NCBI GenBank assembly: GCA_048213135.1
Contig: PS015109.1
Coordinates: 140,327-195,116, forward strand
Length of the DNA: 54,790 bases
Reading direction: 5' to 3'
Origin: Reclinomonas americana ATCC 50394
Taxonomy: Eukaryota
The position numbers and the translations under genes were made by a program. Positions 5,101 to 54,751 of this stretch are shown here, piece by piece. The notes under the pieces are model-generated. The model was not told the origin of the DNA and did no database searches. It saw nothing but the letters and a program-made list of their open reading frames with translations. Each line of letters starts with the position of its first letter. Position 1 is the first letter of the stretch.

Positions 5101-8100
5101 CACCATACAACTGTGCAGAACGAACCTGTGAGCAGGCACGCATACCGCACTCTGATCAAGATCAACAATCAAAAGCGGACCTGACCAATGTGCACTTGGT
5201 GATGCTCAAACTCCCAGCGCAGTTTGTGTTTGGCAAACGCCTCGTACAACCGTGCACGAGTTACGCGCTTCATTGACGGTGCAGAGCCATCATTGCCACC
5301 GTTGCGAGGGTCCGCCCGCTCCAGGTCCTCCATCACAAGAACAATCATGTTCAACATCAGCGGCTGTTGTTGGACGGAGGTGAGGAGAGAGGAGAAGTGA
5401 GAACAGCAACCTCCTCCGGACTCACACATGAAACGCTGTTCTGCATTTTTTCTGTCTTTCAATAGTCATCCTCTCCAACATGTGCCATCACCGTGGCTCA
5501 CAGGACACCGCCTAACGCGCACTATCCTCCTACGCCTTTCTTCTTTCGTTCTCAGTGCGCTGACAAAGGCCACCACATTGTGTTCGACCTCTCCACTTCT
5601 GCATCGCATTATGGGCGCCAACACTCCACTGACGCAGGTTGTCACAACTAGCACACAGCACGCTCGCTCTCTCTCTCTCTTGTGCATCCGCACTGAATCC
5701 CTTCTCATTTCATGTTGTCGATGTGCAAATACACCAAACCACTTGGTGCACATTACTCTTCTGATACTGCACCCACGCCCTTCTTGTGTGACCTCTCTTC
5801 GCCGGAACTCCCGTCAAACTCTTCTCTCCGAATCGTGATCATCACAAAGCTAATGCAGGGCACCGCTTGGGCGACTATTATTCTTCCTCTTGTGCCTCTG
5901 GTGACCGGCACACCGTTCCCTTCTTGCATTGTCAATGTGACGCAGGACACCACTCTTCATCGGAACCTCTCATCTACTAAATTTTTGTCTCTCCGCTCTG
6001 TGTCATCATTGTGCAAGTGAAAGAAATCACTCTTTCCACTCTTCTCTCGCCCTCACGCTTCTACTTTGGCGCCGCAGATGGTGCTCACACGTTTTTCTCC
6101 GTCTGATAAATTTCTTCCTTTCTTGTTACTCTCGTTTGACACATTTCTCCCCACCTCAGCGTCCCATTCATCTCTTTCTATCTCCCACCACCATTGACTC
6201 ACCGACGATGCAAGTCCATCCAATCCAGGTGTACGCTGGATCTGCTGCTTGTACTGCTCACAAGAGCGCGGATGATCCAACCGCAACTCCACAAATCTAC
6301 TCGCACAAAGTGAATGTCGGCACCACGGCAATGGGGCGCTCAGTGGAATCTCACACGTAACTTTTGGAGGAAGAGATCAACGTCGTCCTTGGAGAACAAA
6401 CGCAGCATGCATCTCGCCAGCGTGCGCTCTGGTTGACGGAGGCGCTCGGCGCGCGACAGCTTCGGGTCCACAGGCACGAAGTGTCCCTCGGCCCAGAAGT
6501 TGCCGAGGCGACTGATGAACTCGCGCCGCACCGACACCACCAGCAGCACATTGGGCCAGCCCTGTACGTATACAGCAGAGTGGGTATTGCTCTCTTCATC
6601 GTGCGTCGCTTCACATAGAGTGGCAACGCAACGTCCAGTTCGTGGTTGACATACAAGTTGCCGGGTGCCTCGCCGCACTCGTCGTATCCGTCGAGCGCTA
6701 GCACGACGGTGCCGATGCGTCGGAGCTGCAGGGTACAGCTACAAGTGAGGCACGGTGGGGAGACAAAGTGAACAGTTTACAGGATTGGCGAAGGGGATGA
6801 GAGACCCACGTATACTGAGAGAAAGTGGGAGAACGACTGGAGACAAAAAAGAAAGAGGAAGAGTGGGAGCAAAAGCGAGACAAGGAGAAGAGTGGGAAAG
6901 GAGCACATAGAGAGAGTAGCGAAAACACTCAAGAGGAAAACAGAAAGAGAGATGAGAGAGAGCGAGACGGAGAATGGAGAGAGAAGACACAGATGAAGGG
7001 ATTGTGTGTGTGAGTGCAGAGCAAGAGCGAGACAAGGAGAATTGATGAGATCTCTAGCGAGGTGTGAGAAAGAAGTACAGTGACCGTGAAGAAAGATAGC
7101 CGTGAGGTGACCAGGAGAAAAGGCTGTGAAGAGAGCGAGAGCGGGATGAGGGACGAAAGAAGAAGACGGGGAAATCGATTATAATGAGACAATACAAATA
7201 GTGGGAGAGAGAGAGAGAGAGAGATAACCGCAGACGAACATTAAGACCCGATGCAGAAGCAAACTCAGCTCCAAACACATTATCATCCATGAAACAGAGA
7301 GATGAAGGCAGAGCTCGAGGTCACATGTGAGGGTGCACTTACCTCGTCCTCCGACACTTCCATCCTCGTGCCATCCAAAGCCTCGTTGGCCTCGCGCAGG
7401 AGGTAAGGCAGCAGCGCTCCTGGCTTGCGCAGCACTTCCTCGCGAGGAATGGCGGGAAGACGAGCCGACAACACCAACGTGTCGTCGCGCGCATGCAGGC
7501 GGGTCGTCAGCTGGCGCAGCAGCACGGACTTGCCACCGCCGGACCATCCCGCCACCACCAGCACCTGATGCAAGAAGATACAATGCGTAAAACAGTGCCG
7601 TCGCGAAGCACACGCGACTTGCGAGCAGGTCACAAGAGACAGGAGCTTGCAATAACGCAGCGCCGCAGCGAACGAGAATGCAAGCATTCAACTCACTCGC
7701 AAAGAGGGCGACGATGATGAAGAAGCAAGCTCGAAGATGGCATTGATGTCGATTAGAAGAGAGTATACGTGTGACTAAGTGAGCGTGCAATCGAGGAGAG
7801 TTGAACAAAGGCATGCGCGCGGCGAGGAAAGATCTAAAGAGCCGATGATACAGGAAGACATAGACAGGGGTGAACAGAGAGGAGCTAATCAATGCAAAAA
7901 TAGAGAGCAGGAGTAAGCAAGAGAGGAGTTTGAGAGAAGCAGGAGAAAGAGAAGCCGGCAGCGAACATATGTACAGAGAGAGGAGAGAGAAGGGGAGACG
8001 AAGAGAGGGCAGAGATGGAGGAGAGCGAAAAAGAGACAGCTTCAATTACAGCATCCACACACCTTGTCTGCCGGACTCTCACGGCTGACAAACTTGTCGA

Positions 8101-8551
8101 GCACATCGTCGGCCAGCTGCGCAGTGGCACGACCGCCCGCCGAGTCAGCCTCAGCTGTGGTCTGGTTGGCCCACAGCGGAACCTGGGAATGGCGAGTGCG
8201 TCAGTCGAGAGAACTTACGCACACCTCCTGCTCCCCAATTTCGACGAAACGAGGCACTCCATGGTGGAGAGGTTGCTCGGGTCGTTAGCCAGCGGGAGAA
8301 CGGCCTTCAAGGTGTTGGCCTCGTGGAGGGCGTGGATCTTTTGTTGGAGAGCCGAGATGGCTAGAGGTGCTGGTGCCGTTGTCGCCAATGGCGCTCCAGT
8401 TGGCGCCAATACGTACATGGAGGCCGACGGCGAAACGAGAGGAGATGGATGTCCCACGACGTCGGCGGCACGCGAGGCTCCACACCCGCCGCCGCAGAGG
8501 GCGAGGCGATGGGCACGAAGACGACGACGATGATGCGGCGAGTGAGTGATT
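2157..8551 (-). CDS. NLR-like STAND protein: NACHT NTPase + pentapeptide repeats + 14 WD40 repeats (spliced, about 1255 aa from ATG 8418; true start may lie further upstream)
   Basis: Manual GT-AG exon chain that stays in frame throughout: 8551(or ATG 8418)-8251, 8182-8063, 7564-7343, 6725-6633, 6561-6362, 6296-6203, 5363-5181, 5125-4991, 4908-4822, 4750-4613, 4549-4487, 4421-2157. Motifs: Walker A VLVVAGWSGGGKS, Walker B VVLALDGYDE, NLY..HELDGW..LLVVSVRREF, PLML, winged-helix FMHKSVLEYFAA, pentapeptide segment FSGRDLSGVRTPGADLRDA...ADLRGVNL...ADFRGADVTGV, then the WD40 array. Confidence 0.9.
2270..4085 (-). repeat. Tandem array of 126-bp WD40-coding repeats (14 complete + 1 partial)
   Basis: Unit LEGHxxxVxAVAVTPDGQHIVSGSxDxTVRVWSVASGEEVRR recurs every 42 aa with high nucleotide identity (e.g. 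ccttccagtcggcgcacctcctcgccacttgcca on +). Consistent with two 7-bladed propellers. Confidence 0.95.
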
Positions 8552-8814
8552 CTGGTGGGATGGAAGACGGAGAGAGAAAGAATACGGGAGAACGAGGTGA
8601 GGAAAAAAGGCGGGGATTCGAATTCCCCATGAGCTGAGGTATTCAGTTCCTTTTTTTGTGACAAGGAGTGCGAATAGTGTTACTGCAAGTGCACATTGCG
8701 GCGGCCCCAAAACCAACACGAAGGTTGTGCTCGAAGTGTCTTTCCTTTCTTTTTGATGAACGCCACAAAAGCAGAGGTTGACATCTTCGTTTCTCTACAA
8801 TCTCCCTCCCTTGA

Positions 8815-9150
<336 letters not shown>

Positions 9151-10256: not shown

Positions 10257-11305
10257 CTACACCACATTGATCACCTTCACCACCGTTGCCGCCGTCGCCG
10301 TCGACAACAAATCTCGGAAGTTCCAACCTGCGCGGTACATGAAACCTCGCCTTGAGTAACCACACACCTCCTCGGCCACCGACTGGCGACAAAAAGAAAC
10401 ATCACCCTCACTCACCAAGGAATGCAAAGAACGCAATCTTCAGGGGCTCGTTGACCAGAATGTCTGCGACAACAACATGAAGCAACAAGAGGTCAGCAGT
10501 GTTCCGAATACAAAAGTCGCTCATGTCACCGTCGCACCTTGGGCCTGCAGTCACAGCGAGACACACTCATTTAGATTCAAGACAAACTCATTGTTGACAA
10601 GACAGGCTGTCACTCACCACTGGTGATTTGCAACGAGAAGCAGACATCGATCGTCATTCGATAGTACATGGAGAAAAGAAGAGAGTGAGGCAACAGCCAA
10701 TTGCGACACTTGTTGACACACATGCTTATCGTCTCACTCTCGCAACCCAAAGGCACAAACAATTTCATGTTTCTCCGCTATTTCTCTCTCCTCTTGCTCC
10801 TCTCCCTTCTTCAACCACTCTTCCCTTCACATATCTCTCTACATGTCTGTCTCCTCTCTCTCTCTCGCTCTGTCATATTGCTTCTTTCTTTCTGCATGCG
10901 CCCCTCTCCCTCCGCTTCTGTCACTCTCTCCCCTCCCTTTGCCTCTCCTCCCCTCCGCCCTCCTCTCCTTCACGCACCACTGTCACACACACAAACAACT
11001 CGTCAGCAAAAACATCGAGAAAAGAAAAGAGCAACAACACTTCCACACGCACCTTATTCCACATGCCGACGCAATGAGACCTCCATTGCCCGCCGCCTCC
11101 AAGTCCTTCATCACTCTGTACGACGCAAACACCTGTGAGTATCTCCAAAAGGCGCACGATACTCGCAACCACAACTCACCTCGACGCCGTGATAAGAGTC
11201 ATGATAATGAGGAAGGCTCCGGCGAGCCTGCAAGAAATTGACAAACTTATCAGTTCAGCTGTGTTAACTTTACTGGTATTGTAGCCCTCCCATCTTCTCC
11301 TTTTC

Positions 11306-11337
<32 letters not shown>

Positions 11338-14300
11338 TGCTTCCCCACTCCCCCTCGATCTTACTGTCCACCCTACGTTGCATCTGCACGCAATCTCTCT
11401 CACACTGCTCTCTTCTCTGCGACTCTCCCCCGCATGCACTCTCCACCCTACTTTCCTCTGTACTCTCACACAAAGCACATAATCCGCAATACGCTTTCCC
11501 TCTCGCTTCTCTCTCTCTAAACCAGCTCGCTCTCCACCCCATTACCCTCTGCATGCTCACATACGCCCATTCCTTGCAACCCAGCCCTCTTCCTCCTCCT
11601 GGTCTCTCTCCCTACTTCTATTTCACCAATCCACAAAGCCCTCTTTCCATCCCTCCGTCCCCACCTGGCTTTCTACTCACTCTCTCTCTCTCTCTCTCTC
11701 TCTCTTGCTTCCCCACTTTCCCTCCATATTACTCTCCCTCTCCTCTCGCCTCCTGCCCTCCCCCTGTCTTCCCCCTCTTCTCCCCCACTCACCACAAGAT
11801 CACAAACGTCCACGGCACGAGGGCAAGCGGAAGATCATTGTGCTGCACAGCAATTCCTTAATTCCCCATCAGGACGACAATCGCACTCTCTACAACCATC
11901 CCTACCTTCCACCGCATGACAAATCGACGCAGCGCATTCCCGCTCTGCAGACCAACAGCATCCGAAGAACGCGGTGCAACTGGAATCATGTCGAACTCCG
12001 GAAGCGCCTTGGCTGTGAACCCGAGCACAATCCCGTTGAGGACGGACACGAAAAAAAACGCAGCGCGGGTGCAAGCAATATCGCCCCACGAACCGCTTGT
12101 CGAACACGTGGAGCTCCTCCTGCTCGATGTGTTACTGTTCTCGTCCCATGCAATACTTGTGGCTGTGAATCACGCACAATGGTAATGGTGAGTGCAATTG
12201 AAGGCAAAGTATTAACTCGCACCATACTTCTCCTCTCCATCTGCTGTATTGTATAATTGCTTTCAGCTCACCTCCCTGTTCCTTCTATCCTCTCCTTCTC
12301 TCATTACACATCCCTTTTCCAATGTTTCCACCTCGTCTCATCTCCATTTGCATCTCCATTGTCCTTAAACACCCCCCATCCCGTGTCGCTTTCTTCTTCG
12401 ACACTCCCGTTCCATTCACTTCCGCCTTAATGCTCTTTTCTCTTCACCTTTCACCTTTCTCTTCTCCCCCGTGTCTTTCCCACCCACCCCATCCCGTCTC
12501 GCTCTTTCTTCGCACTCCCGTTCCGTTCCCTTCCGCCTAAATGCTCTTTTCTCTTCACCTTTCACCTTTCTCTTCTCCCTCGTGTCTTTCCACCCACCCC
12601 ATCCCGTCTCGCTTTTTCTTCGCACTCCTGTTCCATTCCCTTCCGCCTAAATGCTCTTTTCTCTTCACCTTTCACCTTTCTCTTCTCCCTCGTGTCTTTT
12701 CCACCCACCCCATCCCGTCTCGCTTTTTCCTTCGACACTCCTGTTCCGTTCCCTTCCCCCTTAATCCTCTTCCCTCTCCCCCTTTCACATTTCTCTTGGC
12801 TGCCGTGTCTCCATTGTCCCTTCCCACCCTCCCTTATCCCGCGTCGCTTTTCACCGCTCTTCCCCTCATCACCCCCTTCCCTCTAATCCTCTCCCCTCCT
12901 CCCTCCACATTTCTCTTGCCTCTCGTCTTACTTTCTGCATTTCCACTGTCCTTAACCACCCCTCACCCCGCGTCGTTTATTTCTTCGCCACTCCCGTTCA
13001 GTTCCCTTCCCCTAATCCTTTTCTCTCCGCCTTCTTGCCTCTCGTCTTTCTATCTGCATTCCCACTGTCCTTAACCACTCCCATCTCGCGTCGCCTTTTT
13101 TCTTCGCCACTCCCGTTCCATACCCTTCCCCCTTAATCCTGTTCCCTCTTCCCCTTTCCACATTTTTCTTGCCTCTCGTCTCATCTCCATTGTCCTTTCC
13201 CTCTGCGTCTTTCTCTCCATCCATCCCTTTTCATCCCTTTCCCCTAATCCTCTGCCCTCTCCGCGTTCCACATTTCTCTTTCGTATCTCGTCTCTCCATC
13301 TGCATTTCCATCGTCATTTCCCTCTGCGTCTCTATCTGCACCCCACAGTGCCTTCAGCATTGACGTTAGTCTCCCCTTCCCACATTTCTCTTGCCTCTCT
13401 CAAGCTCATCCAGGTTCCCCGTTTCCCTTCCCTCTCCACATCAACATCACTCACTGCCATTACGCAGTGCTGTCATTTCTGCCCTCACACGCACTGCCCA
13501 CTCTCCTCCTCCTCCATCTTCCCATTTTCCATTCCCACCTTCGTCCACCGTGCATTCCCTGTTCCACTTTGCCCCCACATCCCTCCCTGTCTTTCTCCCA
13601 CTCCCTCTAGTTTTGTTCCACTTTTTTCCTATTCTTCCTTCACTTCCAGTTCCCTTTTCCAGACCTCCCTCCCCCGCTTGTTCCTCCCACCTTCCCCTCA
13701 TCTTCTCCTCCTTCTTCCCATTTTATCTCTTCTGCAGGTTCATCCAATCCCTTTCCTTTCCCTTCTTCCCTCCCGGTCTCCTCATCTTCTCTTCTTGCTT
13801 CCCATTCTTTCTCCCCTTCCCTTCCCTCTCCCTTCCCACTTATCCCCATCCCTCCCTCTCCCTCCCCCCTCCCTGCCCTTCCCCACTCACCCACTGGCAG
13901 CGTCCCCTTAACCTGCCGCCTCCGACGCCCAGAGTTGCCCAGCGCGCTGATCTGAACGGGATAACTCACTTCACCGACCTGCGCGACAAAAAAAGCACTC
14001 AGTGACACTCTCCTTTCCCGCCTCCTTCCGCATTCTCACACGCCCTCACATGTCTGTTCTCATCCTCCACCGGCTCCAGCATCGGCACGATATTGCGCGT
14101 TCGCTGTTGGTCGGCTAACAGTGTGCGCACTCGCTGCCACATTGCCGTGCTCTGGACACAAGTATCGCTTGAGATGCACACAAAACATGGCGACTGCAAC
14201 AACGACCAATTACCGAAGCAGACGGCACGGCGGAGACATCTTGTGCACTTGTCGAGTGCGGCGATCGCAGTGGGGTGTCGCCAGCGTGTGAACTGCATGG

Positions 14301-17300
14301 GCAAAAGAACGTGAGACATGACTTGAACACGAACTGGCAAGTACAAAAAGTCTTGCCTTTGAGACGAATCAGACGCTTGGCCGTTGCGTCTGCGTGCATA
14401 CCAAAGGTGAATTAGTCACATCAACATATACATGCGTACTCTTCTTCAACTTTCCATTGCTACCTTGTCTCCTCCTCTACCACCACCTGGTTTTACATCT
14501 TGTCATTCTCTTCTTCTTCTTCATCATCGTCCTTCATTTTTCTTCGTCTTCTCCTTCGTTTTTCTTCCTCTTCCTCTTCCTTCTCTTCCTTGTCCTTACC
14601 CATTCCCTCCTTATTCTCTTCCTCGTCTTTCTTCTTCTACTGCTTCTTCCCTTCATTTTCTTCTCCTACCTTCATCGTTCTTCTTTCTTTCTTCTCCTTG
14701 CTTCTTCGCCCTTCTCGTATTCTCTTCCCACATATCTGCTCTTCCGCTTCCTTCTTCTCAGTTTTTTCTTCTTCTCCTTCTTCCTCATCCTCTTTCACAT
14801 TTGCTTTCGTGTTCACCCTTGTTTTTTCCTTTTTTTCCCCTTCTCGCTCCTCCTTCCTTTCCTCTTCTTCATTTCCTTCTTCTACTCCCTTGCCCCTACC
14901 CTTCCTTCAAGCCCCTCCCCTCTTCATTCTTCCCTTCCTTTTCGTCTCGCTCGTCTTCTTCTGCTCTTCATCGCTAATCTGTTTCCTTCTTCTTTCTTTC
15001 TCACCTTCCTTTTCCTACATGCCTTTCTCGTCTTCTCCTCTCACGCACCTGCCCTTGACCTTCTGTCTTCTCAATCCATTCTTCTTCTTCTTCTTGCCTT
15101 TCTTCTCCTTGCACTCTTTTACTCCAACTATTCGTTTCCACATTCCTGTTCCCAGCACCTTCGTCTTCTTCTTCTCCTGCCTTTATTTGTTCTTCTGCTT
15201 CCTTCTTCCTGTTCTCTTACTCCTCCTCAGCCTTCTAACCCCTCCCCTCTCCATCCTCTTCCTCGTCTTCTTTTTTTCTTGTCATTTCATTTTCATCGGT
15301 ATCTTCTTCCCCTGCCCTTTACCCGTTCTTTGCTTCCTTCTGCTTTCTCTTCTTCCTCCCTCGTCCTCCTTTCTTCTTCTTCGTCCTCTTTCTCCTCTTC
15401 CACTCCATCTCCTCTACTTTCTCCTTTCTTTTCCTCCTCCCCATCATATTCTTGCTTTCCCACCTCGTTCCTTCTCCTTTTACCCTCCTTCCTCCTCCGT
15501 CTCCTTCTCCTTCTCCTCTCCACACTCACCCATTCTCATCGACATGAGTCGAGAAACCAGGCTCCAATGCCAAGTGAGAGCCATCCACATGAACAATGAC
15601 ACCACCACCCGCCTGCGCTCCACCAGCACGCGCCAATGGCCACGGTTCGGTGCGCTGCAGGTACATTACAAAACAGCGATGAGTGAGTTCGCTTGTTGAG
15701 TGCATTGATACTGGAGTGAAGCGCAACAGCAACGGGCGGCGACGAGAGGGCAAGAGCGCTGGAAATACCAGTCAGCAATCATGGGTAAACGACATAGATT
15801 GGCACAACTGACCTTGAAGACACTGACGATGCGCCGGCGTCCCCGCTGTGCGTTTAACTTCTTAGCCAACGACTGCGTGCGAGAATGACGCACTCTAGCT
15901 ACTTACCTCATCACACCACTCACGTCATCCACGATGCAATTCGCAGTCAAGAACGAGGCCAATGTTGAGGCTCTGTCATCATCGTCTACTTGTCGCTGTT
16001 GTTGCTCACGCCACAAGCGCACAATGTCTTCTTCGGAGATGGTCGCAGCGGCCGCATCACCGTCAGCCTGTGCGACGGCTGAGCGCCGCCACGACATGAA
16101 TTCGCGGAGCAACGCCACCAGCGAAAATGAACCGGCACTCTGCGTCACCTGATGTACTGCAAGTAAGCGACACCAGATCAAACTGCTGACTAACAATGCT
16201 TACGGAGCGACCTACCGACACAGTCGGCAGTCGAATGTTCGTCATGTAGTACAACCAGGCTCCAATCACGTCCTGTTGTCGCAGCAAAGCAAGTACTCGC
16301 ACGCGATGGAGGTCCACATTTCGTGCCACCAGCGGCGCCTGAGCGCAAGTGTGTCAGCGATTAGACTGTGCCATGGAAGAGTGAAGGCGAGCGGACGCAC
16401 CATCATTGCTGTCGAGTCGCCGTCGTCATTGTCATTTTGTTGCACTTCGGCGACAAAGTGGGGTGACAGTGGCATGACGGAGAGCCACGGGCTCGGAGAC
16501 GTGGGGCTGCCGGCACTGGGTGGGTGAGGAAAGAGAAAGAGGCATGAAATGTAAGCCAAAAAAAACACTCTTCCCTCCGCAATTATTTGTACCTCCATCT
16601 CACTCACATATTCATTTTCGTTCTCCTCTCCACTCTCTCTTCTCCTCGTTCTTCTATCCTCTCTTTTCTTAACTTTTATCCTCGTTTCCCATCTTTGTTT
16701 CTTCTCTCCACTCCCACTTCTCTTCTCCTTTCTCACTCCTCTTCTCGGTCTGTTATCCTTCGTCTGCCTTTCCCTCGTTCTTCTCTCATTTTTCTCTCTC
16801 GTTCTTCTCCGTTCTCTTCTCCTCTTCGTTTAGCTTCCCCTTTTACTCTCTTCTCCTCGCGCCCTTCTCTTCTCCTTTCTCACTCTTCCCTTTCTTCCTG
16901 TTATCCATTCTCACTTTTCTCCTCGTTCTATTATCCTTTGTCTGCTGTCCCCTCGTTCTTCTCCGTTCTCTTCGCATCTTCGTTTACTTCTCCTTTTACT
17001 CTCTTCTCCTTGCTCCCTTCTCTTCTCCTTGCTCCCTTCTTCTTTCTCTCTTCTCCTCATTCTGTCGCTCTGTTATTCTTTTCTCCAATCTTTCCTTCTC
17101 CATTCGTCTCCTAATTCCCATCTCCTTTCTTTCTCTCCTCTCTGTGGTCTCTCATTCTCTTCACTTTTCCTCCCCTCTCTTCTCCCTTCTCTTCTCTTCC
17201 CTTTTCTTCTCATCCCTCTTCGTCCCTTCTCCTCCTTCACCTTCGTCCTCTTCTCCTCTCTCTTTGGTCTCTCATTATCTTCATTTTCCCACCCCTCTCT

Positions 17301-20300
17301 TCTCCCTTCTCTTCTCTTCCCTTTTCTTCCCACTCCTCTCCCCATTCTCTTCTCCTTTCTGTTTCTTCTCCTTTCTTTTGTTGGTCTCTCATTCACTTCA
17401 CTTTCCCTCTCCCCCCTCTCTCTCTATGTCTTCTCTTCTCTCTTCTCTTCCCTTCTCCTCCTTCATGTTCGCCCTATTCTCCTTTCTCTCTTTGCCCTCG
17501 TTCTCCAATCTTTTTCTTCTCTCTTCTTCCTCTCTCTCTCTCTCTCATCTCCTATCTCTTTTTTCTCTCTCTCTTCTCCTTTCCCTCCTTCTCTCTCTTC
17601 CCTTTCCCTTCTTCCCCCTTATCCTCTCTTCGACTCACCTGCTGCTCAGCGCCGTGCGACTCATGCGTACAGACGCAAGTCCACCTCCAACAGACGGCGG
17701 CGCACTCACATCACCAATCAACTGCCTGTCGGTCACAAACGCGAGCAGACGAGCACGTGACTCCAGCTGATCACCGGCAGCCGCCGAAGCCGTGGCGGCG
17801 GCGGCATACTGCGCCAGCCACTGTCGTTGGAACTCATCGGCAGACATCTCAGGCAGTGAGATTCCGTCGCCCGTCGCCGCGCTGTGCGTCCACTCGAAGA
17901 ACTCGCGCTGCAGTGCAGCCAGCGAGTATCCAATGGGGACCTGGTGGATAACATGGGCAGTCGTAGTCAACACTCGGCTTCCTCGTTCCCAAGCCATCGA
18001 TTTCCTCTTCCCCAATCCCTTCCTCCTACCTATTCTCCCCATTCCCCTTCCTCAATATTCTCCCTTCCCTCCCTCCTCCTCTCTCCCCCCTTCCGACGCA
18101 ACTGCACTCTCCCTCCCATGCTGCGCGTAATGCAAAAACGCGCCAAACACATCGTTCTTCCGCAGCAGGGACATGGCCGTGAGCCAGTGCATGCCGGAAC
18201 CGCCACGCCCACCAAGCCGAGAACCACGCATTGCTGTGGTTGGTGTTGCTGCTGCTGCTGCTGCAGGTGGTGGCGGCAGTGGCCGAGGCAATGACAAATG
18301 CCGGAACTGGGGAGCCGCAAGCAAACCGTGATGTTTCTGCACAAACGCGCGCACACACACACAGTCACCATCAGCAGATCCACAGCAACTTGGCCTACAT
18401 GCATCGGACATTACCTTGCGAGTCGGTGAGTCCGACCGAGACGACGTGCTGCGATCAGACTCTGCACGCTCTACGTCGGACACGTCATGAGCAGCCGGCA
18501 TGTCGATCGACGTCACTTCCCCTGACTCCGGTGTGCGCTTCAGTTCATGCACGTTTGATGGTATCTCCAGAACCAGGCGCGGTGTGCGTTTGAAGACTTG
18601 CGACACGATCCACACCACAGGCGCCATGATTACTCCTGTAGGCAATCATGTGAGACACTTGCATCAACGCGCACACAGACATAGTTTCAATGACACTGCT
18701 GCTGTTTCTTTTTTGCTCACACTCGCTCTCATTCTCCCGAATGCCAGCTCGCGTTAGACTCATTCCCTGCCACATCTCTCCCTCTCTCTCTCTCTCCTTG
18801 TATCATGCCCCCACTAAAACCACGATCCATTTCGTTTCCCGCACACGCATTTCTTATCTCTCGCTCCCACTATTTCTCGTCCTATCCTCTCCAGCTATTA
18901 CACTCCCTCTCCGTTCTCCCACATGAAATCTTTTCTCCCATTCTTCTTCCTTCCCTCTCATCCCTCTCCATTTTCCTTTCCCATTCTTCTTTCTTCCCAC
19001 CCAGTATTTTTCTTCTGCTCCATCTCCGTGTACTATGATCACTCTTCGTTCTCCTTTTCCCATTCTTCCTTCTTCCCTCCCATTATTTCTCTTTCTCACC
19101 CTCCGTGTATCACACTCCCTCTCCATTTTCCTTTCCCATTCATCCTTCTCCTGTTATTTCTCTTGTTCTCCCTCTCCGCGTATCACACTCTCTCTCCGTT
19201 CTCCTTTCCCATGCTTCCTTCTTGCCTTCAGTCTCTCCCTTCTTTTCCCTCCCAGCGTATCACTCTCCGTTCCCCCCCACACACACATCTTATCTCCCCC
19301 GACATCCTCCTCCCCTCCTATTCTTTCTCTTCATCTTCCTCAATGTATTACGCTCTCTCTCTCCGTTCTCCTTCCCATTCTTCCTTCTTGCCCTCAGTGT
19401 TTCCCTTATTCTTCCTCTCAATGTATCTCGCTACTTCGCCATTCTCCCACACACAATTAGTATCACATTCTTCCTTCTTGCTTCTTATCATTCTCCTCCT
19501 TTCTCTCTCCGTGTTCATTCACCGTCCCTCTTTGTTCTTCTACAAACGCATGTCATCTCCCATTCTTCCCTCATTCCTCTCCTCCCTTTCCTCTTTACCC
19601 TTCCTTATCAATCACTCTCCGGTTTCTTCCCACTCTCCCCCGTCCTCCCTTTCCCCTTCCCCCTTTCCCCTTCCTCCCTTTCCCCTTCCTCCCTTTCCCC
19701 TCTCCCCTTCCCCCTTCCTCCCTTTCCCCTTTCCCCTTCCTTCTCCCCTTCCCCTTTCCCCCTTCCCCTCCACGCACCCGATATAACACCAATCAACAAC
19801 TCACGCAAGAAAGCCGACCCAGCACCGGTGACCGTCGCCTGCTCGGCAAACACCGCATTGCAGTACAGCGCCAAGCAGACGGCGAACCAAAGCGTCTGTA
19901 CATGGAATCGTGTGAGGACAAATTGGGGGGTAATCAAGCGACGGTGTACGAAATCAAACCGTCGTGCGCTGCGTTCTGCGGAAGCGATCGGCATTGGGAC
20001 ACACAATCGTCGACATCCACGAGTGATTGTCTGTGCAGCGGATAACAAGTGAACATCAAGACTAGGCAGATGAGATTTTTCACGACTTGAGACATACCGA
20101 CGACGGCCGTCCACATCGTCACGATGCGCCGTTTCAGCCATCCGCGACTGCGGTTGATTCGAATTACAGCGTGCACCAGACCTGCGTACAGACAAACGCG
20201 TGATGAGATGCAATGCATGAACAAAATGACGTAAAACCACAACTGAAACGCACGTCGGAACCGCGAGATGGCAATGAAATGCCTCGCCAATGCCAACCGA

Positions 20301-23300
20301 GAGTCTACATGCATTCTCAATATGAGCCTCACAACGACCTTCCGCAGGAATAAACATCAATATCCAAATGAACCTGCATTATGCGGCTGCAGATCGCGTT
20401 CTCGCAAATCGGCAGTGGAGAATACTCTACGCGTGCACCTCACAGTTAGAGTCCCGGTCATTCAACAAACTGAAACTGCGATGCCAGTGCTTACCCGGCG
20501 AATTTCACGCCATACGAGAGGGCTCGCCTCAGCGGCATTCGCAACATGTTGACATGACGGACGAGCTGCCTATCACTCGCCTGGTCGAGCTTGTAGCCAA
20601 TGTACAGCTGTACCAGATAAATGACTTGGATCACTGCGACGAGACGAGGAGGAGTGAGCGACACACTGGATATCTTTGCTGTACGTGGCACACGCACGCA
20701 GTACGCACAGACGACAATCACAAAGGTCGAGCTCCGCAAGAGTTGTCCGGTTAACAGCGACAGCAAGTCGGCCGGACTACGCACGCAACATTAGTCTCCA
20801 TAAACCAGTCAAAGGCAATCATGCAAACAACGAAACGACACGAATGTAAAGTGAATGTCGAAAATGTCGTGCACTGCACCGCAACAAAACAGAACGCGAA
20901 GAAATTAGTATATCAAGTCAGTGCACTGTTCATCACCTCCCTCACTCTCTTTCAATCCACTATCCTTGTGGCTGAAGGCCATTCTCCCTTTCCCCGTCCT
21001 CTCGCTCGGTCCGCTGTTGTTAACTCTTGATCTTCTTCTCCCTCTCTTTCTCTTTTTCCTCTCCTTCCTCTCTTCTCTTTCTCGTTTCGCTTATTCCTTC
21101 TTCCTCTCCCTCTTCCCTCTCTCCCCTCTCCCCGTCTCTCTTTGTTTATTCTTTCATTTTATTCCTATCCATCTCTCTCCTTTCCCTCTGCTTTCTCTGT
21201 CTTTCCCTTCTCTCTCACACACACTACCCCTTCTCTACTCTCTTTCATCTCTCTTCATTCACTCATTTTTCCTCCTCATCCTCATCTCTACTCTCTTTCA
21301 CCTCTCTGTCTTCCTCTCTTCCATTTCCCCCTCCAACTTCTCTTCTCTTGACCCATTCCCTTCTCCCTTCACTCCCTCCCTCCTTCGGTTACGCACAATT
21401 CACGCTGAAATCCGTCATGTGATTGCAGAGACACACAAACGACACCACATCTCGCGTTCCACTCGCCACTCGAGCATACCTGCACCGAAGGAGTGATTCA
21501 ATGCAGGCTGAGGGAACACTCCCCCCAATGAGATCGTGCGCAACGTTGAGCACCCGTCAGAGCGCCACGCCGACTGCGTCTCATTCCAGTAGACACACAA
21601 GCGACTGAACTGGGAGACCACGGCTGTATCGAGAGAATATCAGTAACACGAACATGCAGCTGCACTGAAGCGCACCAACAACAAGAAATGACGCACAATT
21701 GAACGTGGTATTTCGTGGGACATATTGATCGCAATCTACGCACGCCACAGTGACTTTGTAAGTCGCCAAAAGGTGACACACGATTCGAGACACACACACG
21801 CGCACACGCATACGCAACGAGAATCATTCAGCGAGACGAGCGTGGTCTCTCCGGTCGGAGATGACGTCAATGTTGCGGTCGTAGACGATGATCGCACACC
21901 GCAATTATCCAAGTACTCGAGCAAGTCATTCTGCACCACAATTCCATTAGACGTCGATCAATCCACTCTCAGCGCACACTCTTCCATATCTCCCGAACCA
22001 ACTGAGGTCGAAGTGTCTCCAGCAGATCTGAGTCCTGTCGTGCAATCTCGAAAGCAAACGCTTCGCCATTGGAGGCATCGAGCGCCAGCGGCTGCCCGTA
22101 GGCATTCTGCAGCGTAACCCGCTGGATGGGGCTTCCCAGAACGGTGGTGATGCGCGGCGCTGGATAGGGACTCAGATCTGACGAAACAAGTCAGACGAGT
22201 CGAAGTGGCAGACGGGAATAAACGACGGCGACGCAACTCGACGCCACAGTAGCGGACACGAAAATCGGTGTCGTGGCAAACAGGCGAGCGGGAATGGTGG
22301 GAGGAAACTGGTACTGTGTCAGCAGCGAGTTCGCATTCGAGTCCACCGTGCCGCCAATCTGTGGCACCACGCCTGTTGACCCGTTGGTCGACATGTTGCT
22401 GAAGGCGATGAACTGTGTGCGGAGGTGAGTTAGAATAATCACATACATCCATTCATATCCGACGGGAGAGAGAGAGAGAGAGAGATAAACAGAGAATAAA
22501 GTGAGTGCGCAGAGAGGCCCATCCATACACACACACAGACACTCTCTCTCTCCACACATACACACGCACACACACTCTCTTTTCTCAGCAAAAAAAAACA
22601 GTCGCTCAGGTGCTCCCTCAGATAAACATGCGGAGCGAGACAGACATTCGCATGCGGGCAGAGAGAAAGAGAGGGACAGTCACAGACACACGGCAACATG
22701 GATTTGTTGTGAGACAAAAAACAGAACAAATGCAGGCACATTGTGCATGTACCACCATTGACGGCTGCGGCGCAAAAGCAGTTCAGATAACTCATTCGCA
22801 CATAGGACCGAAGGCAAGAGGAACGAAATAACAGCGACAACAAGAAAAAGACACAGTGAAAGAAACTGACGCAAACCACACCGACAGTAACGAACGAATA
22901 ACAAGAAGACACCCTGCATCTCTGTTCTCCTTCTCCTTTCCCTATTTTCGTCCTCCATCATACCTGTACCCCCGGCACTGGTGTGCTTGCTGAAAAGTGC
23001 GCCGCCACCAACTGCATCGAATTACCGATAACTACAGTCGCCACTTCACCCGTGGCCTTGGTGTTGACAGATCGGAAGCCAACATCAGCCAGCGCTGAAA
23101 CTCCGGCCGCCGCCAGCTGCTGGAATGCATGCGAGTCACTGCCTGCACTCGCAGACACAGCGCTCAGCGTGTTGTCGATCATGTTGCTGTATGTCTGTAA
23201 CACGGATCGTGCATCAGGGCTACCAAGAAACGAAAAAAACAGCAACCCCGTCAAGTCTCACCGCGACGGTTCCCGGGGGCATGAAACTGCCAATGCTGGC

Positions 23301-26300
23301 CATCGGCCCGGCCGTGTTGATCAACGAAGTGGCCATTGCAAGCGCAGTAGCGCCATCTGCTTTGGCGACGTCGGCCAGCGAACTGTATCGCATGCAATGA
23401 GAAAAATGAAGACATTGCCACACACGGAAGTGATCCACGCACCGGGCAATCTCACTGGCCACCAGCACCATGGTGTTGCTTGTCTCTGGAGATATCGAGA
23501 AGTCGATGCCCGCCGACACGACTGAGAGAAGTGCAGCTGCGTCGTGGAGTGCAGTGCGACTTGCAGGATCTGCAAAAAACAAGGAGACGTGAATGACAGG
23601 AGCTGAGAGTAACGCGGGGCAGCAGAAGGAAGAGCCCGGTGTGGCGTCAACTATAATTCACATGCACATTCCCTCCCTCTTCACCGCCCCCTCGAAGATT
23701 TTCTTCTTGTAACCCTTTCTCATAATATATGCCTTTCGATCCTGTCTATTCTGACACATAAATCAGTGACTATTGCGATCAGATTTATGTTTTCCCTTGA
23801 CTCTCTTACTTCTCACCCCATTCTGCTTCTCTTGCTTCCTCTCTATTCCCTCTTCATCCCTCGTATTCACGACTCTATCATCCTCACCACTCCCCCTCAT
23901 CCTTTCCTCTCACTCTTCTTTCCCCCAAACCTCTCTCTTACTTCTCACCTCACTCTGCTTCTCTCTCTCCCTCTCCCTCTCCTTCTCCCTCTCCCTCACC
24001 CTCTCCCTCACCCTCACACTCCCCCTCACCCTCACCCTCACCCTCACCCTCTCCCTCTCCCTCTCCCTCTCCCTCTCCCTCTCCCTCTCCCTCTCCTTCT
24101 CCCTCTCCCTCTCCCTCGAGCTCACCCTCACCCTCTCCCTCTTTCTCCTCTTTCTCCCTCTTTCTCCCTCTTTCTCCCCCTCCCTTCCCCTTTCCCTTTC
24201 CCTTTCCCTTTCCCTTTCCCTTTCCCTTTCCCTTTCCCTTTCCCTTCCCTTCCTCTTCCTTTTCCGCACCAGCGACAAGGTTGGCAGCTCCACCGGTGCT
24301 GAGCGTCGTGACACCCGCATGTAATGACGCCATCGATGAACCCAGTTCGGCATCGTTGAAATCCCCAGGATCCAGCAGTAACGCTTTGGCGATGCTCGAC
24401 CGGAGGAAGAATGCATCGGCAGCCAGGCTTGCGCCGCCGCTGGGCCCCGCGACAGCAATCGTTGTGGTTACATCCACTGCACCGCCAAATGTATCGCGAG
24501 CACTCACTCCAACCTGCGCGAAAAAATGCAGGTGAGTCAACGTGGGTGTTGTGAGGCGACGAGAGAAACAAACGCAACAGTGAGTAGGTTGGCGCCACCA
24601 GCGTTGCCGGCCAGCGGGAATACTATATTTCTGATGATCGGAATCGTGCTGGAGGCCACATACACCTGCATCATCCCAGCGACAGTCAGTGCGGTGGTAC
24701 TCTCCTCTCCAATATGGATGGTATGACACACACAAACCTTGTAACCATAGAGCGGGTGGACGTAGAACGGTAGATACGTCACTATATGGTCAATTGTCAG
24801 TTGTGAGCAACATACACAAAGAATTGCCACTTCAAGGAAACCAACCTGGAAGGTCCACATCGATGAATTCGCTCATGGTGAATGTAAACGCCGTCGAGCG
24901 AGCTACGCCGCTCAAAGGTGTCACCTCCAGAATGCCCACCGTCGGCAAGTCGTTGATGTTGAGGGTGACGGACGGTACCGCTACAGAGGTTGCAGGCAAT
25001 CAAAGTCAGTCACAGTCAACCATCCTGATGTGCCGAATGTACTTTCAAACAAGACGCAACATATTGACGAATGCGACGCCGGAGTCGGCAGTGTCCACAA
25101 CTCGAAGACATACTGCAGTCCTCCAGTGAGCGTACCACCAGTGATGCGCACTGTTGGCGGCTGCCCGGGCGGACCAGGCAGGAACACAAATGCCGGTTCC
25201 CCGAGTAGCAGCTCGGTCGTGCTCCCTGCATGAGAACAGTGAGGCCAAGAACGGAAAGGGACGAGCAGCAGACACACATCAAGCGCGCACGCCATACTTG
25301 CACCGCCTATTCTCCCTTCTGTTTCTTCCTCTCCACTCTCCTCTCTTGTCGCTTCATCGCACTGTCTCTCTTCTCTGTCCTCTTTGTGTGGCTCACCCTT
25401 GGCATACGCGCGCCACGAATACCGGTTGGCAGCCAGCACACCAGGGTCATCAACAATTGTGGCGCTGACGGATATACTGCGTAGCGGATTGAGCCGTGCC
25501 ACAGCTGCTCCAACGGCAACAGGTGACTCGGAAACCTGCGTAAAAAGACGTTTAGCAATCGAAGGCTTCGGAAATAATCGCCTGCTAATAATGGAAGCTG
25601 AGGACTCACCACACGGAAAATCGTCGTGGAGTCACCAGTGACCACGACGTCGGACGAGGCCTGCTTACTTCGCGCACCACGAATGGCGTTGCATGAAAAA
25701 ATGTACCTGTTGTGAAACACAGGTGAATAGCCTGCTGCAAACACGCAAACATGCACACAGAATGAGAGTTACCGTCCAGGCCGCGAGAATCCGTCCAAGA
25801 TGTACAGCCATTCGGATCTCTCCGTGGTCACCACTACCTTGCCGCAATCGACACCGTCGACCGTACAGCCCCAGTTGAAGACAGTGCTTGTGACGTCGAC
25901 AAGAGCACGATTACGATCTGGATCCACCAGCGTAGCATGCACAGCGATCGGGCTATTGATTGCCACCACAGCGCCCTCTGTACGTAGCTCATGGGTGAGC
26001 CGCCAGCAGCAGAAGCAGTCACGCAGACTGCAAGTCAAATACGAAACGCATGATGATGGTGAGGTCCAAGTCGTGGAATGCTGCAGCGCGACAAGAAAAG
26101 AGAGTTGAGTAAATGGAGAAAGATATACGACACCAAGCACAAGACACATTTTCCATTCTCGCCCACCAGTGACGATGGGCTCCCGCGACAAAATCAAGTC
26201 ACCGGCATTCGCGTCGGTGACAGTGCGCACATATAGATCGTAGTATCCAGTCGCCGCTTCGAGACCAGCCAGAGTGCACAGAACAGGTGCAGCAGACGTC

Positions 26301-29300
26301 CTACAAGAGTGGTGCATCAGCGGCCTGTTATTTGCAAGTTACACATCAAGGTGTTGTGCTTGTACTCACCATAAGCAGGGCGACGTAGATGGATCCCAGT
26401 CGATAATTCGAGTTAAACCACTGGCCTTCTTCTGCACGACTTCAAAGCGCGGATTCGGTCTGCCACAGGCGCAAAGTGAGCTTGTAAAATGTACGCACTC
26501 TCATTTCACTGCACTGCATCACGCACACAATCACTCACTGCACTCGCACAATCACGCACACAATCACTCTCCCTCTCTCACTCACTCACTGCACTCGCAC
26601 AATCACTCACTCATTCACTCACTCACTCACTCACTCACTCACTCACTCACTCACTCACTCACTCACTTCCTCACTCACTCACTCTCTCTCACTCACTCTC
26701 ACTCTCTCACACATTCAATCACTCTCACTCACTCACTCACTTCCTCACTCACTCACTCTCTCTCTCACTCTCTCTCTCTCACTGCACTCACTCACTCTCA
26801 CTCTCTCACACATTTAATCACTCTCACTCACTCACACACTCACTCACTCATAAGCAGCTTTCAAAGAGCAGCATTTCATTTCAACATGCACACCCGCTGT
26901 CACTCCATTGCTCATCCCACTACAATCACGTACCCTCTGCATTACTGTATTCGCCCGCAGTAGTACTCAGTCACAATCAATTCGACCTTTCACAATCTCC
27001 AACTCTCTTGCTTTCTCAATCTCTCTCTTTTTTTCTCTCACATACGCCCTCACGCTTCCTCTCCCTTTCGCGTCACTACATACTCAATATCTCTCCTCCT
27101 CTCTCACTCTCTCTGTTTGTATTCCCTCAGTTCCCCTTCCCCCTCTCTTTTCCCTCCTCCCTTTCCTCGTGTCCTCACTCATCTTTCTCTTACTTTCACT
27201 CGCTCTCCCTTCGCCCCCACCTCTCTCCCTCTCCCTCTCCCTCTCCCTCTCCCTCTCCCTCTCCCTCTCCCTCTCCCTCTCCCTCTCCCTCTCCCTCTCC
27301 CTCTCCCTTCCACTCACCCTTCTATAGGATCCGGTGCACCACTCGCGGATACGATGCTGAACATCCACAGTGTTCAGTGCAAAAAACAGAAATCACAGCA
27401 CGCATAACAACAGCACGCAACACAGGTGCCGTCGTGAACGACGGTTTGCCACCATAACGCATCGAAGCCGAGTGCACAAGCAGCGTCTTGCCTGCAGCAC
27501 ACAAACAAAAGTGCGAGAAAAGTAAGCGAAGCGAGAAATGGTCGCCGCGACATGCACAGCGCATGCAAGACGCAGCTGACAATGACGGTGGAAACGGAAA
27601 AGTCCAAGTTGCTGGCGAGTCCCACCGAAAACGTATAATTGGTGTTCGGCAACAGACCCGTGACCACGCACAGCACTTTCTCCGTGAAGGTGGTGGGCTG
27701 AGGGCACGGATTGGGAACCGTCGACGACCAGAGAGCTCCGTTGACCAACACCTGCAAGTGATCAGTCGCCACTCGGGCCTCCACTTCACTCAACGCGTGT
27801 CGAACGGAATTCGTGCCGGACACGAGCTGAATGGTGAGGGTGACATTCTGTGGACGCTGAATCACCTCGCCCACAGATATCTGCTGTCGGATGCTCGATT
27901 CTGTGGATGCACCACCACATGATAAGACAGAATCACACTGACCAGATGTTGCAGCATCCACACGACCCACCAACAGTAATCGGCACGGCGCCTGGAATGG
28001 TGGCAAAGCTGTCGATTTGTGGAATCGCGCGCATGTCGACACACACCACGTATTGCCGAACAAAGCGGCTGAGGACAAAGCCACTGAACACCGCCTCGTG
28101 CGCGACATTGGTCGCCGCTGAAGCGTCGGCCGTGACTGCCACGGCGACGGTGCCGGTGCGTGGCGGATCAGAGCTGGTGGAGCACGACGATATACCGTTG
28201 GTCGCCAGTGGCTCCAACCGAATGGCACGAATCGAAGCCACAGGTAGCAGCCCGAGTCCGGACAGCGTAAGCGATGTAGTCTCCACCGCGGCAGGTAGCG
28301 TCACTGGCGTGAAGCCAAAGATGCGTGCTGCGCACGGGGAAAAAAGTGATTGGTTCATGACAAACGTGAGAGACATAGTAGTGGCACACCAACACCACCA
28401 ATGTGCCTCACCGACAACGATGGCATCTGAGGAGACTGATACAAATGCCCCCGACGGATCGCCGGCCAGCGCGTCGAAACACATCACATACCGGCCGGCG
28501 TCGATGGACCGGCTGGCTCGGATAAACAGCTGCGATCCATCGGCTGAGACCTGCACCAAGCCAGCAAGGTCGCCGTCTTGCCACACCACTGAGCCACTGT
28601 CCACCGCAGATGACGTGACCGAGGCAGTACACGACAGAGCCTCCCGCTGCAGACGAATTCGTCGCAGCAGAGGTCCTGGCGCGAGATTGGCACCAACGAC
28701 AGTCACGGTGGGAGGTGGAGCGTAGAGAGCAATTGCTTGAGGTTCCAGTCGCGTGGTCGAGGCTGCAACGAAAACACAAAGGCGACGGACACAACCATCA
28801 GAACCGACAGCGGCATGCAAGCACAGCGATGATACCAGACAAACCAACAGAGATTGTGGCAAACGATGCGTAGGAGATCATGACGTTGGCAGTCACATCG
28901 ACACACACAGTGTACGTGTCGCGCGGCAAGGAGCCTACGAATGCCACAATCCGACTGGCATCATCCACAGCACCGACAGCACGAGGCGCCAACGTGGCCT
29001 CCACAGTGTCAGCAGTGAACGGCGCGCACAGCATGCCAGGCACCAGACGAACACTGCGCACACTGACAGCGGCGCGCAGTCCGGCACCTATCACAGTCAC
29101 TCGCGATGTGGTGTCCTGGCGCAGTACGGCGGTCGGCATGACAGACACTGTCTGCGCCACGAGTACTTCGTTCCCGTCGTCGGCCACTGGCCACTTGATG
29201 AGCGGCGACCCAGCAGCAACCGGTCTGCCCCGCAGATTGACACATATAACCCACTGGCCCGGCGGCAATCCGTTGGCCAACAACACCCGCAGTTGCGTCT

Positions 29301-53300: not shown

Positions 53301-54701
53301 CTGGTACCAGTAGAGCTGGCTGGACTCGCTGCGACGAGTGAAGGCGGCAGCGATATCCGACGAACGAGGTGGTTTCCCTTTTCTGCAATCCGCAAACGCA
53401 TGAATGAGAAGTCATGGGTGAACAACAAATGCGAAACTAATCTAAAGAGAGACACAGAAAGAGAGGCAGGTAAGCAGGTATCAGATTTGCAGCCGACGTG
53501 CACAACCAGTATCTATCCACTTTTCTTGGTAAAAGTCACCAAACCTGCAATAACCAGTCCGCCATTGATAAAATCAAGTGCCACGCCATACTGTATAACA
53601 ACGGGTGAGCGGCACGAACGCAACAATACATGCAAGTCCACGAACCGGGTTAAACATTGTGGCCACTGACGTTGAGCCGTCTGCAGAGCCGGTCACGCTG
53701 GCCAAACCGACAAGAGTCGAAACTGCGCCACTCGAGACGGACACTTGTCGCACGGTGCAACTGGTCAGCTGCAAAGGCCATGCGATGCAGTCAATACGGT
53801 AGTAATCCCCAAAGCACAGCAAATGTCGACGGCCACGCAACATCGGTCACATACAGCACGCCGACAATTGGATCGAGAGCCAGTCCTGTTGGTCCATTGA
53901 AGCGAGCATCTGAGGCCGCCCCATCAGCCACGCCAGCCGCCGACCCCGCAACACCTGCCAGTGTCGACACTGCCAGCGACGCCAGGTCGACACGTCGGAT
54001 GGCGTTGTTGACGGAATCTGCAATGAACAGCGCGGAGCCAGATGCGTCGAGGGTGATTCCCAACGGCGAGTTGAAGCGCGCAGCAACGCCAACGCCATCA
54101 GCGGTGCCAGCAGTGCCAGCGGAACCGACAAGAGCAATCACCACGCCAGTTGATGAAATGCGACTGGGAGCGCAAACAATCAGCACAGGGGAGAAGGGGG
54201 AGTGGAGAGAGGGAGAGAGAAAGGAGAAGAAGAAGAAACAAAAGAAGGAGGAGGAAGAAGAAGTGGAAGAAGAAGATGATGAAGAAGAAGAGAAGAAGAA
54301 GAAGAAGAAATGAAGAAGAAGAAAATGAAAAAGAAGATGAAGAAGAAGAGAAGGAGAAGAGAAGGAGAAGAGAAGGAGAAGAGAAGGAGAAGAGAAGGAG
54401 AAGAGAAGGAGAAGAGAAGGAGAAGAGAAGAAAAAGAAAGAACGAAAAGAAGAAGAACAAGAACAAGAAGAACAAAAACAACAAAAAGAACAAGAACAAG
54501 AACGAGAACAACAAGAAGAACAAGAAGAAGAACAAGAACAAGAACAAGAACAAGAAGAAGGAGAAAAAGAGAAGAAGGAGAAGAAGACGGAGATGACTGA
54601 CTACCGACAAAGATGAAACGATAACAATAACAAATCACATGTATGGCATCGGAAGGACACCTAAGCAGCAGGCACGCAGAGACGAGAACACGCGCGCGCC
54701 G

Positions 54702-54751
<50 letters not shown>

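Follow-up and report, generated by a model that had tools for sequence, protein, structure and literature searches.

A predicted giant surface receptor of the polycystin-1 lineage with five membrane helices and no channel half in Reclinomonas americana

The polycystin-1 family (PC1, PKD1L1-3, PKDREJ and the 11-helix SpREJ3-6) combines a REJ module and a GAIN domain, whose GPS lies ahead of the first transmembrane helix (TM1), with PLAT, a TOP domain, a six-helix TRP-like channel half and a long tail. A gene at the end of contig C101 (GenBank PS015109.1) of Reclinomonas americana ATCC 50394 raises the question whether the front half of such a protein exists as a receptor of its own and, if so, whether this form is a remnant of the longer one or its forerunner. 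The investigated stretch, referred to as the window, represents the terminal 54,790 bases of the contig in an assembly of 108 Mb and 16,441 contigs. A sequence-only reading had proposed that it encodes a polycystin-1-like anchor reduced to REJ, GAIN and five helices. Our analysis makes it reasonably probable that the window carries an intact gene for a very large surface receptor of the polycystin-1 lineage with the first five helices only. The predicted protein shares with the family REJ, GAIN/GPS before TM1, the pre-TM2, TM3, TM4 and TM5 signatures and, as seen on a homolog, the TM1-TM5 fold. Unlike the family, it has no PLAT, TOP domain, six-helix channel half or long tail, and it differs further in an ectodomain of NHL/FN3-like and EGF repeats and in a TM3-TM4 loop of 610 residues.

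The receptor gene model comprises 64 GT-AG exons on the minus strand, from 31609 to 10257, with an open frame of 2,901 residues. Its 51 exons over 26459-10257, every one flanked by AG and GT, encode 1,765 residues and a single stop, and 13 further exons carry the frame on to 31609; the start of the gene and the signal peptide lie beyond the contig end. Exon limits of this predicted model were set by hand from three-frame displays and joined by coordinates; the 27572/27486 junction (the second AG) and several junctions of the TM3-TM4 loop were chosen among alternatives. Introns mostly measure 52-90 bases, and some are purine-rich and span 0.2-1.7 kb. The domain order is 11 NHL/FN3-like modules, EGF, Ig-like repeats, REJ, GAIN/GPS, five PKD1-type helices and stop. 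The part from REJ to the stop is composed as follows:

24270..26459, minus strand: REJ module, 11 exons (Pfam PF02010; match in the genome profile search)
21397..24269, minus strand: GAIN region with the GPS at its end (two exons matched by Pfam; E 1e-11 with an animal GPS profile)
20495..20873, minus strand: stalk and TM1 (hydropathy peak 2.24 at model residues 856-890; paralog matches)
20098..20494, minus strand: remainder of the short basic TM1-TM2 loop, the PLAT site in animal PKD1 (block distance; PLAT scans)
19778..20030, minus strand: pre-TM2 signature, TM2 and first half of TM3 (outside profile, independent E-value (iE) 3.8e-11; animal profile, E 3.8e-5)
11906..18635, minus strand: end of TM3 and loop of about 610 residues (hand model)
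11180..11842, minus strand: TM4, two exons (hydropathy peak 2.51; paralog alignment)
10416..11115, minus strand: TM5 over five exons (hhalign of the paralog profile against outside and animal profiles)
10257..10327, minus strand: last coding exon and stop (same last exon and stop in the paralogs L034 and L035)

All motifs that had been named in advance (REJ, GPS, pre-TM2, TM3, LP and EPLK) were recovered at their places on the minus strand, with the pre-TM2 signature on exon 20030-19960, TM3 on 18635-18415, LP on 11842-11793 and EPLK on 10463-10416. The early stop after TM5 is likewise present, ending at 10257, 30 residues past EPLK. A Pfam scan of 22 exon stretches matched one REJ (PF02010, E 2.7e-7 on exon 24980-24846, above the cut-off) and two GPS halves (PF01825, E 1.2e-4 on exon 21623-21545 and E 5.4e-4 on the adjacent exon 21479-21397, which alone is just below the cut-off), and a PDB sequence search with the REJ exon returned nothing under E 1. 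The GAIN/GPS region directly precedes TM1. His-Met-Thr occupies the expected GPS cleavage position on exon 21479-21397, where Met is tolerated, with Cys and Trp residues flanking it. The GAIN fold was seen on the model of the homolog P0050 only, whose predicted structure (mean predicted local distance difference test score (pLDDT) 64) matches the GAIN domains of latrophilin and BAI (8vti, 4dlq, 4dlo) with E 3.5e-8. The GAIN domain is necessary and sufficient for self-cleavage, predates animals and occurs in Tetrahymena and Dictyostelium (PMC3321182).

The affinity to polycystin-1 is documented by the membrane part. An outside TM2-TM3 profile, built from eight non-animal seeds, matched the window model with an iE of 3.8e-11 and 36 bits (best of 500 shuffles, 3.1 bits), and it also matches two animal proteins (8e-7 and 3e-5). 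An animal-only TM2-TM3 profile reached E 3.8e-5 and 10.0 bits, with a shuffle best of 4.5 bits. The TM4-TM5 block of the window scored an iE of 0.006 against the outside profile and is tied to PKD1 only via the paralog family profile, which hhalign matched to the outside profile with 96.4% (E 1.3e-9) and to the animal one with 87.7% (E 3.4e-6). A PDB sequence search with the database protein P0113 returned only polycystin-1 TM4-TM5 (E 0.006). In a comparison with 48,161 chains, the predicted membrane part of the homolog P0054 (pLDDT 72) found polycystin-1 (8z6b_A) as its best match, with Z 17.1 and a root-mean-square deviation of 3.6 over 194 residues (chain range 3063-3610). This was the only match above Z 8; the next one scored Z 6.6, and GPCR-like chains (G-protein-coupled receptors) stayed at or below Z 6.4. 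The superposition on PKD1 TM1-5 suggested by the sequence-only reading succeeded on this model of a homolog. Among the Foldseek matches listed for the long P0050 model, none covered its membrane part. Taken at the sequence level, the idea of a polycystin-1-type anchor is well founded, because the TM blocks match outside and animal profiles, TM4-TM5 through the paralog profile, and the comparisons indicate that TM1-TM5 of the window is homologous to the front half of polycystin-1.

The number of five helices stands through homology, whereas a plain hydropathy scan yields four segments (model residues 856-890, 1006-1024, 1031-1062 and 1672-1705). TM5 stays under the hydropathy bound of 1.5 owing to its polar residues. 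A candidate sixth helix at 12094-12012 was rejected, since it lies inside a predicted intron and is unconserved in the paralog L034; it might possibly be kept through intron retention.

Is the rest of polycystin-1 really missing? The distance between TM1 and the pre-TM2 signature is as short as had been claimed: it measures about 560 bp in the DNA and, after splicing, about 95 residues. The GPS-TM1 block is separated from the TM2 block by 77 residues, whereas three PLAT-containing animal proteins have 146, 146 and 150. Pfam on the tested exons, a local profile and tblastn detected no PLAT in this basic loop, and none of the 22 Pfam-scanned exon stretches matched PLAT or channel. With an animal channel half as query, tblastn was negative for the window, for 10 kb past its low end and for all paralog loci retrieved; PLAT queries produced one marginal match only, on another contig. 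Searches of the own genome for PLAT and the TOP domain were blank, as were their controls, and therefore do not prove an absence. The claimed lack of PLAT and of the 6-TM channel half is hence upheld by the locus itself: the TM1-TM2 interval is too short for PLAT, and downstream of TM5 there are no channel exons. The protein, being without the channel half, should be unable to form a TRP-type pore. By the PLAT and channel tests it is placed outside the 11-helix PKD1 family, yet it is homologous to its front half.

The receptor gene is not singular but belongs to a large family in its own genome, where exon-level searches gave at least 36 REJ and at least 13 GPS matches (lower bounds, not copy numbers). 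Out of 16 paralog loci taken, 11 were read to their stop (L018, L019, L020, L022, L024, L025, L027, L029, L031, L034 and L035), the count leaving out L021, L023, L026, L030 and L033. In all 11, the stop follows 27-39 residues past the EP/QP motif of TM5; two pairs are near-identical, and the 11 ends thus represent about nine distinct genes. The order TM3, loop, TM4, TM5 and stop is common to them, some having few introns, which speaks against the assignment of the TM exons to a separate gene.

TM5 comes into register with PKD1-type proteins only with predicted exons of 2, 2 and 7 bases, a dependence that the sequence-only reading had overlooked:

10978..10979, minus strand: predicted 2-base exon (AG/GT flanks; in L034 and L035 with a synonymous change)
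10618..10619, minus strand: predicted 2-base exon (AG/GT flanks; kept in L019, L022, L024, L034 and L035)
10538..10544, minus strand: predicted 7-base exon (AG/GT flanks; kept in the same five paralogs)

L034 and L035 harbor all three micro-exons inside otherwise diverged introns, and L019, L022 and L024 have the 2- and 7-base exons. L025 codes the matching TM5 residues without introns, and the micro-exon run is also absent from L018, L020, L029 and L031, which are intronless there. On a profile of eight paralogs that excluded the window and L035, splicing with the three micro-exons scored 58 bits versus 45, 30, 29 and 29 for four rival splicings. Splice-site scores alone fail to single out the micro-exons, and their support is comparative; the acceptor of the second one is at the low end of the score range, and the bare 2-base-exon pattern occurs often, at 82 positions of the minus strand and 32 of the plus strand. 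This commonness, together with the introns of 1.1-1.7 kb and the low-complexity loop between TM3 and TM4, is what a gene-model artefact could draw on, in which TM4-TM5 would belong to another gene or channel exons would hide in the gap 9007-9079 or beyond. Such an artefact is very improbable in view of the same TM3-to-stop order in 11 paralogs, the higher score of the micro-exon splicing (58 bits, with 45 for the next one), the absence of channel similarity in the window and 10 kb past its low end, and the unrelated NTPase-WD40 gene that comes next.

The search for relatives allowed us to address the direction of change. A profile of 12 REJ exons retrieved 3,356 representatives at E <= 0.001, and among the best 150 of them 42 contained both the TM2-TM3 and the TM4-TM5 block (iterated profiles), many of the others being fragments. 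PLAT and channel are both absent from 40 of these 42 proteins. A Pfam scan of 30 of the 42 detected PLAT in 2 and PKD_channel in 1, and the other 12 were negative by local probes and hydropathy only. Past TM5, the 40 show at most three hydrophobic segments; many have one or two helices there, and four proteins have an extra four helices in the TM3-TM4 loop. Among thirty proteins looked up, Phytophthora (three species), Achlya, Aphanomyces and Chrysophaeum are the named sources of PLAT-less, channel-less relatives that contain both blocks. The expectation of similar proteins in other protists is thus realized in oomycetes and a pelagophyte. A Chattonella cluster (raphidophyte) and Cymbomonas (green alga) gave GPS-TM1 and TM4-TM5 matches only, and structure-atlas clusters labelled Cercozoa (0.92) and Haptophyta (0.89) are leads only. 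Word-index searches added nothing among 789 candidates with the paralog REJ core, and only P0113 and bird PKD1L2 among 282 with P0113 residues 945-1165. One relative, P0074, contains a PH domain (residues 2516-2613) in the TM1-TM2 loop at the PLAT site of animal PKD1, which suggests that this loop accepts inserted domains.

In the sample, PLAT or channel occurs only in the animal proteins P0033, P0136 and P0198. P0033 of Branchiostoma is the complete 11-helix form, and P0136 of Owenia fusiformis (CAH1802410.1) has REJ, GPS, PLAT and five helices and ends 13 residues past TM5, possibly representing an intermediate state or an incomplete gene model. The term "reduced" is therefore the one part of the sequence-only reading that we cannot support. 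Most likely, the five-helix form is older and widespread, and PLAT and the TRP-like half were added in the animal line, which is the simpler scenario because PLAT and channel are animal-only and the plain form is present in this genome and in stramenopiles. A secondary reduction, with one or several losses of PLAT and the channel half from an 11-helix PKD1-like ancestor, is unlikely in our view. Channel-less REJ proteins do exist within animals, namely the sea-urchin SpREJ proteins with 1, 2 or 6 helices (PMC1934368), and the predicted Owenia protein with PLAT and five helices would fit as well. In the tree of 25 sequences and 278 columns the animal pair (support 94) and the oomycete set (100) are recovered, with weak deeper nodes (35-50) that leave room for losses. 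However, this scenario requires the loss of two separate parts in each line, and it has to account for PLAT-less, channel-less forms in oomycetes and the pelagophyte, for the partial matches in the raphidophyte and the green alga, and for the restriction of PLAT or channel to the three animal proteins.

The five-helix protein might alternatively be one half of a split polycystin that docks on and gates a separately encoded TRPP channel. In animals, PKD1 and PKD2 act together as a complex (PMC9672506), and protists, too, have TRPP channels according to a literature listing. In the genome of R. americana, however, the sole PKD_channel match was rejected as TRPP, since it reads as a four-domain Cav/Nav-type channel, and the TOP-domain search gave no candidate; both were exon-by-exon searches in an intron-dense, gapped assembly and thus weak. 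The source of the match, L036 (G000:C433:3900-9700, minus strand), is a gene for a four-domain voltage-gated Ca/Na-type channel. We regard the split polycystin as distinctly unlikely.

The ectodomain extends upstream to the end of the window:

27318..30796, minus strand: Ig-like repeats and one FN3-like unit (open frame; collinear matches in the C56 and C138 paralogs)
30872..31326, minus strand: cysteine-rich EGF-like repeats (Pfam EGF, E 7.4e-5; hEGF, E 2.7e-6)
31391..54790, minus strand: distal ectodomain, 11 tandem modules of NHL repeats, each closed by an FN3-like linker (Pfam NHL, tblastn)

Pfam identified NHL on five of the seven stretches tested in the distal part, tblastn yielded 11 FN3-like linker matches, and four N gaps of the assembly lie inside the module region. 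The NHL modules are outside the exon-by-exon model and were estimated at about 400 residues each. With about 2,000 residues modelled and roughly 4,500 estimated for the NHL modules, the postulated multi-thousand-residue ectodomain is substantiated. The modules at 41266-43487 and 46207-48548 share 87-95% DNA identity, introns included, beside assembly gaps, and represent either a recent tandem duplication or an assembly artefact. A Pfam scan of the Ig-like/FN3-like region 27318..30796 was blank; we read the Ig-like repeats as IPT/TIG-type, a fold class that we infer. The paralogs on contigs C56 and C138 show the collinear order of FN3-like linker, EGF, Ig-like repeats and REJ, and this shared order argues for one gene from linker to REJ.

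How might such a receptor work without a pore? Its topology would be that of PC1, with the ectodomain outside and the TM1-TM2 loop, the TM3-TM4 loop and the tail inside, so that the TM3-TM4 loop is presumably cytoplasmic. Judged from the domain content, an adhesion-receptor role is plausible: the GAIN domain would cut itself at His-Met|Thr, the ectodomain would stay bound and contact prey, substrate or other cells, and binding or pull would shift the short stalk against the five-helix bundle. Because there is no pore, no TOP domain and a tail of only 20 residues, output would then run via two loops, the one of 610 residues between TM3 and TM4 and the basic one between TM1 and TM2. The TM3-TM4 loop is largely low-complexity. 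A helical repeat of 75 residues occurs twice in it (17940-17700 and 16148-15907; self-match E 9e-7), and the paralogs keep this repeat in one or two copies. Pfam and PDB profile searches with an 8-row alignment of the repeat yielded no EF-hand family (best value in the structure atlas, 0.83) and thus lend an EF-hand reading no support, although a degenerate form is conceivable. A 200-base direct repeat (90% identical) at 12374-12797 lies inside a 1.7-kb purine-rich intron. The five helices could also serve as a structural anchor only, holding a giant coat or filament protein, with GAIN for shedding and no signalling. The many paralogs with very long repeat ectodomains, the short tail and the mostly low-complexity loop are compatible with this explanation. 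It is nevertheless doubtful, given that a single helix would suffice, that this genome and animals share the pre-TM2 and TM5 signatures and that the loop repeat is conserved across paralogs.

Several observations weigh against a signalling five-helix receptor that preceded polycystin-1. TM4-TM5 of the window is divergent, lacks the usual Trp ahead of TM5, is unmatched on its own by the animal-only profile and went unscored by the outside profile in the database run. The structural evidence derives from predicted models of homologs that are about 20-25% alike to the window protein, and Foldseek with the P0054 TM model found nothing at E <= 0.001, polycystin-1 reaching no better than E 2.5. For the loop repeat, Pfam, PDB profile searches and the structure atlas provided no known family or signalling domain. 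The TOP domain is absent here, though the proposed tethered-agonist route of PC1 relies on it (PMC9672506). Finally, the 150-protein sample is biased to the REJ type of the own genome and is no census, and the tree does not decide between gain and loss because of the support of 35-50 at its deep nodes.

REJ-GPS multi-pass proteins are known from Ectocarpus (PMC4700764) and from sea urchin, with 1-11 helices in SpREJ (PMC1934368). Esi0130_0068 of Ectocarpus, a proposed male-gamete surface receptor, is also a non-animal protein with REJ, GPS and several helices; it differs in its 1,427 residues and 6-7 predicted helices and PMC4700764 does not relate these helices to PKD1 TM1-TM5, the likeness being one of description only. 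The sea-urchin proteins SpREJ1, 2, 7, 8 and 9 are REJ-GPS proteins likewise short of 11 helices, but they have 1, 2 or 6 helices, are of animal origin and in several cases contain PLAT (PMC1934368). Adhesion GPCRs (class B2) resemble the window protein in the large adhesive ectodomain above GAIN/GPS and in a short stalk like the TxFAVLM consensus (PMC12716839); they differ in their seven-helix (7TM) domain, which the window protein lacks, having five PKD1-type helices and REJ instead. The closest counterparts are the oomycete/stramenopile proteins OQR92705.1, KAG1696746.1, KAG3037428.1, KAF4320299.1 and KAJ8598673.1, deposited as hypothetical, transmembrane or REJ domain-containing, which have the same anchor and neither PLAT nor channel. 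They differ in cadherin, FG-GAP, EGF and FN3 ectodomains, in other loops and often in long tails or two further helices. No account of a PLAT-less, channel-less TM1-TM5 class was found in literature that mostly excludes subscription journals, although the supplementary tables of PMC3321182 may list such proteins, and passages of bioRxiv 10.1101/153437 and PMC7399828 contain nothing on a REJ-GAIN-5TM architecture. The class is apparently widespread and undescribed as a class.

The next gene downstream of the receptor is of a different kind:

2157..8560 (upstream limit approximate), minus strand: STAND-type NTPase with WD40 (Pfam)

Its WD40 match is strong (E 2e-176), and AAA_16 and nSTAND_NTPase5 are under the cut-off (E about 1e-4). 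Near-identical WD40 repeats fill an open frame of 776 codons, and we also read a pentapeptide-like stretch in it; in this predicted composition the gene resembles NLR-like immune genes. Downstream of L034, the paralog on C56, there is a comparable WD40 stretch. A second REJ-GPS-5TM paralog, L022 (G000:C101:89300-99299), is located about 50 kb off on the same contig and is near-identical to a copy on C117. L026 (G000:C11:130300-140299) encodes a GPS protein in which additional helices precede TM4, as they do in four nine-helix database proteins (P0107, P0113, P0074 and P0123), followed by a second TM4-TM5-like stretch near a gap. In the closest paralog, L028/L043 (G000:C138), one REJ exon is duplicated and Ig-like repeats recur in inverted orientation, possibly as assembly artefacts.

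For the comprehensive interpretation we see about even chances: REJ-GAIN-5TM proteins, whose helix bundle signals alone, would join adhesion GPCRs and 11-helix polycystins as a third, widespread class of GAIN receptors; PKD1 would have arisen by fusion with a TRPP channel and insertion of PLAT; and R. americana would harbor an expanded family with interchangeable giant ectodomains and a TM5 assembled from 2-base exons. The run of 2-, 2- and 7-base exons with its synonymous change provides a sharp test case for the splicing of very small exons. The role of the first five helices of polycystin-1, and PC1 signalling without the channel half or PKD2, is a question raised in PMC9672506, for which natural REJ-GAIN-TM1-5 proteins represent a direct test system. 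They also supply an outgroup for conservation in the part of PKD1 that is hit by disease variants, and they give the origin of PKD1 a concrete form, the fusion of a five-helix receptor with a channel. The value lies in the class as a whole, of which the window gene is one of many.

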